From Promethearchaeota archaeon (GTDB lineage Archaea; Asgardarchaeota; Lokiarchaeia; Sigyniarchaeales; SOKP01), in NCBI GenBank assembly GCA_004524535.1, contig SDNY01000041.1, positions 1-28,979 of the forward strand: DNA of 28,979 bases, read 5' to 3'. Below the pieces are notes generated by a model. That model did not search any database and was not told the DNA's origin. It saw only the letters and a program-made list of their open reading frames with translations. The translations under genes were made by a program, and so were the position numbers. Below, piece by piece: positions 17,002-26,631 of this stretch (its first letter is position 1; the number at the start of each line of letters is the position of its first letter).

Positions 17002-17059
17002 TAACTAAAGGATTATTTTCTAAAACCAGAAATATTTAAGCTATTTTTTTTATAAAATT

Positions 17060-17254: not shown

Positions 17255-17309
17255 TAAATATTTAAGAATCGCTTTGCGAAGTGTAGCAAAAAAATCAAAT
17301 GATGAGATA

Positions 17310-18776
17310 ATGGAAGAATTAAAGCATATTGATGAGGGATTTATTCAAGAATTAAATAAAATAGCAAACAACAGAATTGAGTATTGGGATTTAAGGTGTG
17401 GACTTTTAACAGGAACTATTCTGGATTTTACTGATCAAAAAAGTAAAGAAATATCTTCTTATAGTGTAAATGAATCTGCAATCAGAACATTTCTAAACGG
17501 TGGCTGGGGATTTTTAGTATTAAAAGATCTTAAAAGAAAGACAATTAAAAAAGGTTTCAATAATGCGATAAAATTAGCTCGATTAACCGAATCAATGACA
17601 AAAAATAAATTTAAGATGAAAGAAAGAGATCCGTTAATCAAAGACTTTAAAATTAGCAGTAAGAAAAAACTAGAAGATATTAGTATTGAAGAAAAAATTA
17701 AACTTGTTAAAAATCATGAAAAAACTGCTTCAGAGTATTCTTCAGATATAAAAAATACGCGCACATTGTATACTGACGGGCAATCTAATAGTTTATTTTT
17801 AAATACTTATGGAAGTCTAGTCCATCAAGAATATTCTACTTTACGAATATTTAATTTAGTGTTTGCTCAAAAAAATGGAATTCTTCAAAGAGCTGTTAAT
17901 TCAGTAGGCGGACTAGGAGGTTTTGAGATTGCAAATACAGATAAAGCTAGGAATTTAAGTTCTAAGACGGCAGAGGAAGTTATTCATTTATTAGATGCAA
18001 AATCTCCTACTGGTGGAAAATTTACCGTAATCATGGATCCAAAGCTGACTGGAAATTCACACGCAATTCGCGCGTAAATCAGAACTTTTATACACGAAGC
18101 TTTTGGTCATGCTTGCGAAGCTGATATTGTTTTAAATAAAGAAAGCATATTAGAGGGGCGGCTTGGTGAAAAAGTAGCTATTGAAGATGTTAATATTATT
18201 GATAATCCGACGATGGGACAGGGCAAAAAATTTAGTATACCATATGAATTATTTGGAAGTTATTTTATAGATGACGAGGGGATCCCTTCCCAAAAGACTG
18301 TGATAATCGAAAAAGGTATTTTAAAAAGCTATTTACATAGTATAGAAACCTCTTCAAGAATGGATTTTCCTCCAAATGGTCACGGTAGAGCTGCTTCAAT
18401 CAGTTCAAAACCTCAAGTTCGTATGGGAATAACGATCCTCGAACCGAAGGATTGGAGTTTAGAAGAAATGATTGAAAATACTCAAAATGGAATACTTTGC
18501 GAGGATTTTCAATATGGATATTGTGACCCCTCTACAGGAAACTTCCAATTCAAATGTAAAATGTCATATAAAATTGAGAATGGAGAAAAGAAGGAATTAA
18601 TGAGAGATGTATCGCTTTCTGGTATGACTTTAGAAGTTCTAAATAGAATTTCTGCAATTGGAAAAAATATTAGCTATAGTGACGGAATGTGTGGTAAGGG
18701 AGGTCAAAGCGTTCGGGTTTGCGACGGAGGACCATATATACGCGCGGAAAATATAATTGTAGGAGGTTTAAATTAA
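17310..18776 (+). CDS. tldD: TldD metalloprotease subunit, interrupted by a 30-nt candidate intron; join(17310..18054,18085..18776) gives 478 aa
   Basis: The two listed ORFs are in the same frame; removing 18055-18084 gives [36 protein letters not shown], PQVRM and GMCGKGGQ motifs intact; followed directly by tldE. Confidence 0.9.
18055..18084 (+). other. Candidate bulge-helix-bulge (BHB) intron in tldD mRNA
   Basis: ATTCACACGCAATTCGCGCGTAAATCAGAA carries an in-frame TAA (18075-18077); central helix CUGG(18049-52)/UCAG(18079-82) with 3-nt bulges AAA(18053-55) and AAC(18083-85). Confidence 0.72.
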
Positions 18777-20147
18777 ATGGATAATAAAGTTGATGTTTAT
18801 AGTTTAGCTAAATACGGTTTAAATTTAGCAGAAAAAAGTAATTCAAATTTAAGATGTGCAGAAATATTTTTTGGCAAAAACAAATATATAAATATTGAAA
18901 TCGAGGAAAACTCTATTAAAAACAGCGAGATTGGGAGCGATTTTGGTGTTTCAATAAGAGTAATTGACAAACAGGGGTCACTCGGATTTACATTTACGAA
19001 TAACTTAGAAAAAAAGTCAATTGAAAAGATGATTACAATAGCAATTAAAATGATGAATGCTGGTACGGAAGATTTAGATTTTAAGAATTTACCAGAAAAA
19101 TATAATGTATATCCAAGTGTGAAGGGTTTATTTGATTCTAACTTAAAGAATTTACAGATTGAAGATTCTGTAAGATATGCTAAGGATGTAATTAAAATAT
19201 GCAACGAAGACGAAATGGCGATATCTCAATCAGCAAATTTTATATCCAACTATTCAGAAAAATACATTTTTAACACGAATGGTATAGAAATTAATGGTAA
19301 TGAGACAAGTTGTACAATTTCTTCAAATATTATCGTTAAGGATAAAATAAGGAAAGAAACATCATCTGGTAATGATTGGCAATCAAAAAGAAGTTTAAAA
19401 GAAATTACCCCCGTAAAAATTGCTAAAAATGCATTAGAAGATGCTAAACGAAATTTAAATCGCATTAAAATAAAAAACATGAAAGTTCCGTTAATATTAA
19501 CACCCAAAGGTACAATTAGATTTATTTTAAGCCCAATTGCTTCAGCCGTAAATGGAGAAACTTTCCAATATAAGAGAAGTTTTCTTGTTGGTAAGATAAA
19601 TGAAATTATTGGGTCAGACTATTTAAATATTGAGGACAATGCCTTAATTGATGGACTAATTGGTTCAGCTCAATTTGATGGCGAAGGTGTTCCTTGTAAA
19701 AACAAAAAAATTATAGAAAACGGTAAATTTCTTCGATTGATACATAATAGCTATACAGCAGGAAAAGAAGGAATTGAAAGTACGGGTAATGCTTCTCGAA
19801 GTTCGTATAGTTCAGTCCCTTCAATCGGCGTTTCTAATTTTATTCTGAAAAATGGTGATTATACTAAGGATGAAATCATAAAAAACGTTAAAGAAGGAAT
19901 AATTTTAGATTATACCGGTGATTCTCCAAATATCACAACGGGCGATTTTTCAGGATTAATACTTCACGGCAATATAATTAAAAATGGAGAAATAAAGGAA
20001 TCATTAAATGAAACTATGTTTGGGATAAATCTTTTAGATCTTTTCAAAAATATTGATGCTGTTTCTAAAGAATTTAATATTTATGGTGGTTATCAAGCCC
20101 CTTTTGTAAGAATCAAAGAAGTGAGGATTATTGGATCAGCAAATTAA
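18777..20147 (+). CDS. tldE: TldE/PmbA non-catalytic partner subunit
   Basis: GVSIRV...GSLGF, SFL.GK, FDGEGVP, STGNASR, TTGDFS, ETM motifs; lacks HExxxH; starts immediately after the tldD stop. Confidence 0.9.
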   Translation: MDNKVDVYSLAKYGLNLAEKSNSNLRCAEIFFGKNKYINIEIEENSIKNSEIGSDFGVSIRVIDKQGSLGFTFTNNLEKKSIEKMITIAIKMMNAGTEDLDFKNLPEKYNVYPSVKGLFDSNLKNLQIEDSVRYAKDVIKICNEDEMAISQSANFISNYSEKYIFNTNGIEINGNETSCTISSNIIVKDKIRKETSSGNDWQSKRSLKEITPVKIAKNALEDAKRNLNRIKIKNMKVPLILTPKGTIRFILSPIASAVNGETFQYKRSFLVGKINEIIGSDYLNIEDNALIDGLIGSAQFDGEGVPCKNKKIIENGKFLRLIHNSYTAGKEGIESTGNASRSSYSSVPSIGVSNFILKNGDYTKDEIIKNVKEGIILDYTGDSPNITTGDFSGLILHGNIIKNGEIKESLNETMFGINLLDLFKNIDAVSKEFNIYGGYQAPFVRIKEVRIIGSAN

Positions 20148-26303: not shown

Positions 26304-26486
26304 TAAACATAATTCCTTTGTAGCATATAATAATATGATTCAAAGTCATTATTTAAAATAATAGAGTCTGAAGGATCTCTTAAAATAAATTAATATCATA
26401 TTGATAATTAGTATCATAAGAATAAATTATAATATTAAATATGAAAATTTTAATTCCTAATACTCATTATTTTAAATTGTTTAATT

Positions 26487-26561
26487 GCGCGAGTGGTTTA
26501 GCTTGGCGATAACGACACGCTCACACCGTGTAGGGCGAGGGTTCGAATCCCTCCTCGCGCA
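26487..26561 (+). tRNA. tRNA-Val(CAC), intronless, CCA not encoded
   Basis: Acceptor GCGCGAG/CTCGCGC, anticodon arm ACACG-CTCACAC-CGTGT, T arm GAGGG-TTCGAAT-CCCTC, discriminator A. Confidence 0.95.
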
Positions 26562-26631
26562 TTATTATTATGTCAATAAAAACCAAAAAAGTTATATGAT
26601 ATCATATATGTTATTGGGTAATGACTTATTT

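Follow-up and report, generated by a model that had tools for sequence, protein, structure and literature searches.

The tldD-tldE locus carries a 30-nt insert

The DNA analysed here, called the window throughout, is the 28,979-nt contig SDNY01000041.1 of a Promethearchaeota archaeon (assembly GCA_004524535.1). Within the genome under study, G000 (99% complete, 198 contigs), the window is contig C115. An initial annotation, made from the letters of the window alone, had taken the host for a probable Asgard archaeon, which is consistent with the assignment of its relatives to Promethearchaeota. The window contains the gene pair tldD and tldE/pmbA. The first of these is split by a short insert, which we interpret as a probable mini-intron of the tRNA type, bounded by a motif of the bulge-helix-bulge (BHB) form. 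The features of the locus, with the support for each, are as follows.

17274-18776, + strand: tldD, whole gene with the insert included (open reading frame (ORF) list, Pfam-type domains)
17274..18054, + strand: tldD exon 1, starting at TTG 17274 with the first ATG at 17310; second PmbA_TldD domain; orthologue alignment
18055..18084, + strand: putative BHB-type mini-intron of 30 nt, its in-frame TAA at 18075-18077; missing in every orthologue examined, found in independent DNA contigs
18085..18776, + strand: tldD exon 2, from TFIHEAFGH... to the stop, with the metal-binding motif and the C-terminal domain (PmbA_TldD_3rd, E 1.3e-58)
18777..20147, + strand: tldE/pmbA, the intact partner, beginning directly after the tldD stop (ORF list, domain match)

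Exon 1 closes with the codons for ...DPKLTG and the first base of a split Thr codon. The upstream ORF of the split gene covers 17274-18077. Its TAA adjoins the catalytic HExxxH motif, and the frame is open again right after this stop. When 18055-18084 is removed, the junction peptide matches that of the orthologues. Searching G000 for other copies of the insert returned only chance matches of 12-16 nt.

The alignment with related tldD genes, proposed in the initial annotation, drew on 16 loci with the HEAFGH motif from relatives and 24 loci from named metagenome-assembled genomes (MAGs) and metagenome contigs, some genomes being in both sets. All 16 relatives' loci read LTG(T/V)(F/L)(I/V)HEAFGH without an insert, including those of same-genus genomes whose proteins are 81% and 77% identical, and all 24 loci of the second set show this same insert-free reading. 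The insert is thus present in 0/40 orthologous loci; it measures exactly 30 nt and lies, scarless, at a fully conserved site. The ORFs and these loci together confirm that tldD is split by a 30-nt insert with one in-frame TAA whose removal leaves no scar. The orthologue of a genome of another family (G029 C28 92848-94233, locus L188) has one in-frame TGA and no added length.

The insert itself is genuine DNA. Sequencing runs were evaluated as Logan contigs, in which rare variants can be dropped; they comprise a possible source DNA run (X1), DNA runs of two other studies (X2 and X3) and an RNA run (X24). Record 9 of X2 crosses the insert (17994-18157) with 0 differences and 0 gaps, and record 22 of X3 does so (17879-18113) with 2 differences and 0 gaps. 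No contig of X1 covers it. The DNA check called for by the initial annotation is therefore borne out by two studies besides the possible source. In X3, a loose end at 18082 belongs to a diverged relative without the insert, and no joint skipping 18055-18084 is listed in any run, among contigs from which rare variants can be lost.

The insert boundaries fit a bulge-helix-bulge

Four cut registers (after 18051-18054) tie for the best junction peptide against an orthologue. Among these equivalent registers, only 18054/18084 forms all 4 of the central pairs, and the fold predicted for it has the following elements.

18049..18052, + strand: central helix, exon strand CUGG, 4/4 pairs with 18079-18082
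18079..18082, + strand: central helix, intron strand UCAG, 4/4 pairs with the exon strand
18053..18055, + strand: 5' bulge AA^A, predicted cut after 18054; A-rich bulges are typical of the class described below
18083..18085, + strand: 3' bulge AA^C, predicted cut after 18084
18056..18078, + strand: intron hairpin, stem 18056-18064/18070-18078 with 7/9 positions paired, loop 18065-18069 (AAUUC)
18047..18048, + strand: outer helix, 5' strand, 2 bp with 18086-18087 (A18048-U18086 and G18047-U18087, a G.U pair)

The central helix consists of C18049-G18082, U18050-A18081, G18051-C18080 and G18052-U18079. Base by base, this agrees with the initial proposal that only 18055-18084 of the four registers gives a fully paired BHB with CUGG/UCAG and the bulges AA^A and AA^C. 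The intron interior needed revision. The inner UU/AA pairs stand (U18056-A18078 and U18057-A18077), while the proposed ACGC/GCGU stem with a 7-nt loop fits worse than the 9-position stem with a 5-nt loop, in which 5 further pairs form and C.A and A.C are mismatched.

Along the 5' strand the order of outer helix, central helix, bulge and inner helix is that of a tRNA BHB. Two 3-nt bulges lie on opposite strands with a 4-bp helix between them and the predicted cuts after the second bulge base, as in the archaeal motif. The outer and inner helices of 2 bp each place the fold at the lower limit of the strict hBHBh' form, for which flanking helices of >=2 bp are reportedly required according to Marck and Grosjean (2003). 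In G000, 655,148 of ~1.02e9 (i,j) pairs show the minimal motif (outer >=2, central 4, inner >=2), a frequency of 6.4e-4; over four registers, the probability of encountering it by chance is ~2.6e-3 (~0.3%).

Conserved genes of the same genome are interrupted in the same way

A census of interrupted genes was made in which no motif was used. Stop-to-stop ORFs of G000 and of the same-genus genome G005, of which 2.31 Mb (~70%) was obtained and the contigs rebuilt, were compared in both directions. Neighbouring same-strand ORF pairs were kept if they were collinear with one orthologue and contained 20-45 extra nt. Of the 22 interruptions obtained, 17 belong to G000 and 5 to G005, so that the scan for other split genes suggested by the initial annotation places tldD in company. 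Besides tldD, 16 interruptions of 26-38 nt lie in conserved protein genes of G000, most of them with BHB geometry. Host genes, named by Pfam search of the uninterrupted orthologues, and G000 coordinates are as follows.

RNA polymerase Rpb1/A': 30 and 31 nt, C17 309-338 and 449-479, + strand
EF-2: 30 nt, C129 9431-9460, + strand
Ribosomal S8: 29 nt
ELP3: 31 nt
MoxR: 29 nt
Prismane/CODH (CdhA-like) protein: 30 nt
CdhD: 30 nt, C8 3057-3086, + strand
CdhC: 30 and 29 nt, C32 3640-3669 and 3788-3816, + strand
Arf/Ras-type GTPase: 30 and 30 nt
E2 enzyme: 35 or 38 nt
POR: 31 nt
SCP2: 26 nt
DUF2507: 30 nt
TldD: 30 nt, C115 18055-18084, + strand
Further interruptions, listed separately from host genes: C100 12004-12033; C104 6213-6242 and 6346-6375; C98 11116-11146; C26 5940-5968; all + strand
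Further interruptions, continued: C50 3920-3950; C86 9543-9568; C188 33791-33819; C148 3001-3030; C123 ~17002-17039; all + strand

EF-2 has a single match in G000 at E<=1e-30, and this match bears an insert with a TAA; the sole assembled RpoA' piece bears two inserts. Furthermore, several inserts are 29 or 31 nt long and shift the frame. As inserts of this kind sit in the sole EF-2 gene, in RpoA' and in about a dozen other conserved genes, and some shift the frame, the affected genes cannot all be dead and the cell must remove the inserts. The S8 intron is less certain, because G000 C188 38442-38567, 4.6 kb from the S8 gene, resembles an S8 N-terminus (86% over 42 residues).

With the insert length fixed by homology, a strict fit (central 4/4, inner >=3) was found in 12/22 interruptions, compared to 0-1/22 when the partner is displaced by 1-3 nt. 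All 4 central pairs occur within 3 nt of the best orthologue-restoring register in 17/22, compared to 0-6/22 with the 3' partner displaced by 1-6 nt; adding a stem of >=5/7 leaves 14/22 vs 0-3/22 in the displaced controls. Counts of equivalent registers are unreliable for some loci, where the peptides scored differed in length. Two G005 interruptions (41 and 38 nt) are structureless and are probably no introns, the E2 insert (35/38 nt) is ambiguous, and the inserts of DUF2507 and of RpoA' after residue 56 form 3/4 central pairs.

The inserts share one architecture

The common architecture was derived from sixteen 30-nt inserts of 9 genomes, 9 from G000 and 7 from EF-2 or RpoA' of relatives. 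In each, four exon bases are followed by a bulge NN^N, a 9-position stem capped by a 5-nt loop, four intron bases complementary to those of the exon and a second bulge NN^N. The insert itself hence comprises one bulge base, the stem-loop, 4 nt that pair with exon bases -6 to -3, and two bulge bases. Over the 16 inserts, 194/208 cells are paired, as against 94 on average and 116 at most in 2000 column shuffles and 72-90 with slid partners; the central-helix columns (C1-C4) are inflated within this count, since central pairing had a part in the choice of some registers. Every paired column shows many pair types. The outer helix is weak across the class (75, 62 and 56% paired) and the bulges are A-rich, which amounts to a relaxed, HBh'-like motif. 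The tldD insert forms 11/13 pairs, as do three other members, within the class range of 11-13, and it belongs to the class on this measure.

Its loop, AAUUC, recurs in 3/16 members including tldD itself. An 11-nt GC-rich word at the tip of the tldD hairpin (window 18062-18072) is common to an intron in an unrelated gene of G005 (C4 215763-215799). Counted over 26 inserts, with homologous sites counted repeatedly, phases 0, 1 and 2 account for 17, 7 and 2 inserts, respectively, and 17/26 are exactly 30 nt long.

RpoA' provides exon-intron covariation. The insert after residue 93 is found in five genomes of four genera, with 30 nt in G000, G006, G021 and G010 and 40 nt in G023, where it was seen as a 40-nt break between two high-scoring segment pairs. 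In the four 30-nt introns (in the order given), the exon strand reads GG(U/A/G/G)C and the intron strand opposite it G(G/U/C/U)C(U/U/C/U). The wobble position of the Gly codon keeps its pairing throughout, as U.G, A-U, G-C and G.U. Flags for internal stops in RpoA' of 13 relatives were mostly due to stops upstream of the true start; the insert itself was found only in G006, G021 and G010, besides G023.

In EF-2, 30-nt inserts occur in 5/24 genomes of the family (G000 and 4 others) and in 0/16 genomes from the order's remaining families. In G001 and G020 the EF-2 intron sits 6 nt (two codons) upstream of that of G000, the intron sequences are clearly related, and both sites follow an exon word ..CAGAU (L182 2156-2209, L183 2156-2209 and L192 389-442, all on the - strand). 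This shift suggests that the intron slid or was inserted again, with the 4-nt pairing as guide. The G000 MoxR intron (L196 389-441, - strand) resembles the G001 EF-2 intron (L182 2156-2209, - strand) over most of its length, and their 5' flanks are alike (AAUG-R-CAGA), a likeness that hints at mobility between genes.

The genome encodes a candidate splicing machinery

Two EndA paralogues are encoded in G000 (on contigs C100 and C84), each of 201 aa and each with both PF01974 and PF02778. The C100 protein is nearest to chain 3p1z_B of the A. pernix EndA, and its K-P-R aligns with K44-P-R46. According to the accessible part of PMC3241643, K44 and R46 lie within a Crenarchaea-specific loop that confers a broad substrate range. 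By eye, the C84 paralogue appears to be devoid of the catalytic histidine context. Asgard EndA is described, in the accessible part of PMC5829648, as an (alpha-beta)2 enzyme with the broad-specificity loop. RtcB is likewise encoded (E 1.5e-168), such that the host possesses genes for both a predicted relaxed-motif endonuclease and the ligase.

Few tRNA genes were recognised in G000, 15 with RF00005 and 9 without introns with ARAGORN. An intron-free tRNA-Val(CAC) lies in the window at 26486-26562. Such a low count, at 99% genome completeness, accords with tRNA genes that are heavily interrupted in some Asgard lineages, as reported in those portions of PMC11291895 and of the preprint 10.64898/2026.10.13.758758 that were available. 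Many tRNA genes of G000 are probably interrupted beyond recognition.

Proposed removal of the insert and its alternatives

We propose, with a probability of about 0.8, that the 30 nt at 18055-18084 are a tRNA-type mini-intron of the tldD pre-mRNA with a relaxed, HBh'-like BHB. In the transcript, the exon bases CUGG would pair with UCAG close to the 3' end of the intron, giving a 4-bp helix flanked by two 3-nt A-rich bulges, while a 9-position stem with a 5-nt loop would close the intron. A heteromeric, (alpha-beta)2-type EndA would cut each bulge after its second base. RtcB would join the exons, the message would then encode a junction peptide identical to that of the orthologues, and the 30-nt intron would be set free, probably as a circle. 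We infer that cleavage and ligation act on the tldD mRNA with whatever efficiency, and this Asgard archaeon probably splices many of its mRNAs. The initial preference for a spliced BHB intron over a pseudogene is supported by the geometry, by the presence of the class in the sole EF-2 gene and in RpoA', by the BHB fit at sites located through homology, by the covariation in RpoA', and by the enzymes encoded, the motif-free census being the decisive part.

Several observations weigh against this proposal. Within the class, the tldD intron belongs to the weaker members: its outer helix has 2 bp, one of them G.U, only 2 pairs adjoin the bulge, and two mismatches interrupt its stem. Being unique to G000, it offers no covariation at its own locus, and the pairing across the class is affected by the inflated central-helix counts given above. 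The minimum free energy (MFE) structure of a 66-nt context (18035-18100) is another fold, equalled by shuffles (z -0.07); we regard this as uninformative, because the MFE structure of a 54-nt context has 7/9 stem pairs and 3/4 central pairs and is essentially the BHB model. RNA contigs of X24 cover 17872-17929, 17988-18022, 18874-19126 and 19739-19986, and none crosses 18054/18085. Finally, a whole-genome scan for the motif combined with ORF fusion gave no clear excess (695 loci vs 687-735 in controls; with longer stems 102 vs 90-97, or 45 vs 31-47, the shift control being imperfect), which can be explained by ordinary gene junctions swamping such a scan.

The alternative that survives best, and which we nonetheless consider unlikely, is that the insertion inactivates the gene: tldD would have become a pseudogene recently, or a mini-intron would have landed there without being usefully spliced, and the fold would be irrelevant at this site. 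The position of the TAA beside the catalytic HExxxH motif, the restriction of the insert to this genome, the weak flanking helices and mismatched stem, and the want of an RNA contig over the junction would all be in keeping with a dead gene, as would the other TldD/PmbA paralogues of G000 (e.g. C106:21320-22582, 29% identity). Against it, the same kind of insert sits in the sole EF-2 gene and in RpoA', from which the cell must remove it, and the tldD insert pairs as well as other class members do. It is also identical in contigs of two further studies. The TldD motifs and tldE had been described as intact, and indeed no second lesion, neither a further stop nor a frameshift, was found in the ORFs and translations of tldD or tldE. 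Compared to a 95%-identical relative, which may or may not carry the insert itself, exon 2 has 10 synonymous and 4 nonsynonymous codon differences in 112 codons, too few to decide. By codon position the differences number 3, 2 and 10 (first, second, third), hence mostly third-position changes, and the pattern is close to that of tldE against the same relative (47 synonymous, 35 nonsynonymous). A metagenome locus at 95% identity, L048, ends before the insert site.

Programmed translational bypassing, in which ribosomes would hop over the 30 nt, has precedents in gene 60 of phage T4 and in the byp elements of a yeast mitochondrion. Those elements are said to be short hairpin inserts with early stops in coding sequence, much like the inserts here, and a GAA repeat flanks the tldD insert (left repeat of 3). 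We consider this explanation highly improbable, as it needs an in-frame take-off codon that matches the landing codon, a rule followed in 1/26 inserts and broken in the other 25/26, tldD (GGA vs AGA) among them. Bypassing predicts neither exon-intron covariation nor, at exactly the length of the insert, two 3-nt bulges around a 4-bp helix of exon and intron. That the insert is a product of assembly or binning, or a minority allele, is conceivable for a MAG of 198 contigs whose possible source run has no covering contig, but it is the least credible explanation of all, given the gap-free contigs of two other studies (0 and 2 differences), the lack of a listed joint skipping the insert in any run, and the recurrence of class inserts at the same sites in separately assembled genomes.

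More tentatively, and at somewhat less than even odds, the inserts may constitute a mobile family of stereotyped 30-nt BHB mini-introns that has colonised protein genes of one Asgard family, essential EF-2 and RNA polymerase A' included, with mRNA splicing by EndA and RtcB being routine there. New sites would be chosen by pairing of the 4-nt 3' segment of the intron with the exon. The related introns behind similar exon words in MoxR and EF-2, together with the 6-nt shift in EF-2, suggest a reverse-splicing-like spread.

Relation to known systems

The closest counterpart is the crenarchaeal cbf5 BHB intron, reportedly described by Watanabe in 2002 and Yoshinari in 2006. As proposed for tldD, its host is an archaeon with a hetero-oligomeric EndA and its removal restores the frame. 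The gene differs, and the host is an Asgard archaeon here as opposed to Crenarchaeota there. In addition, a single genome here has at least about 15 such introns, including those of EF-2 and RpoA', and they take a stereotyped 30-nt form in which the hairpin is 9-bp/5-nt and the outer helix weak. Splicing of cbf5 was demonstrated on RNA, whereas that of tldD is predicted from DNA. The presence of a BHB intron in the cbf5 pre-mRNA of Crenarchaeota is documented by Yokobori (2009; PMC2738675) and in references of PMC5829648.

The non-canonical introns in tRNAs of Asgard archaea and Thermoproteales (PMC11291895; 10.64898/2026.10.13.758758; PMC5829648) share with the present inserts the predicted enzyme and the motif, and, going by the accessible portions of those sources, the host lineage is rich in interrupted tRNA genes and the gains look repeated and lineage-specific. 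They differ in that the hosts here are mRNAs, where the outer helix has no support from a tRNA stem and is nearly absent. The available text of these three sources deals with tRNA introns only. A search of the full-text literature, with supplements and most subscription journals outside its reach, found no report of BHB introns in protein-coding genes of Asgard archaea.

A functional parallel exists in eukaryotes, where HAC1 and XBP1 mRNAs are cut by Ire1 and ligated by Trl1 or RtcB. That process is likewise said to be a protein-only, spliceosome-free removal of a short mRNA intron at stem-loops, with joining by a tRNA ligase. It differs in its endonuclease, in its motif and in being regulated by stress; no regulation is shown for tldD.

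Implications

Published mRNA introns of the BHB kind come from essentially a single gene, cbf5 of Crenarchaeota, and here at least about 15 genes appear to need their removal. Gene callers split or truncate such genes, which affects the proteomes of Asgard archaea, estimates of completeness and reconstructions of metabolism such as those involving CODH/ACS subunits; the stereotyped 30-nt form offers a concrete search model. If the proposal holds true, interrupted protein genes and an obligatory, non-spliceosomal splicing of mRNA would already be present in the archaeal group nearest to eukaryotes.

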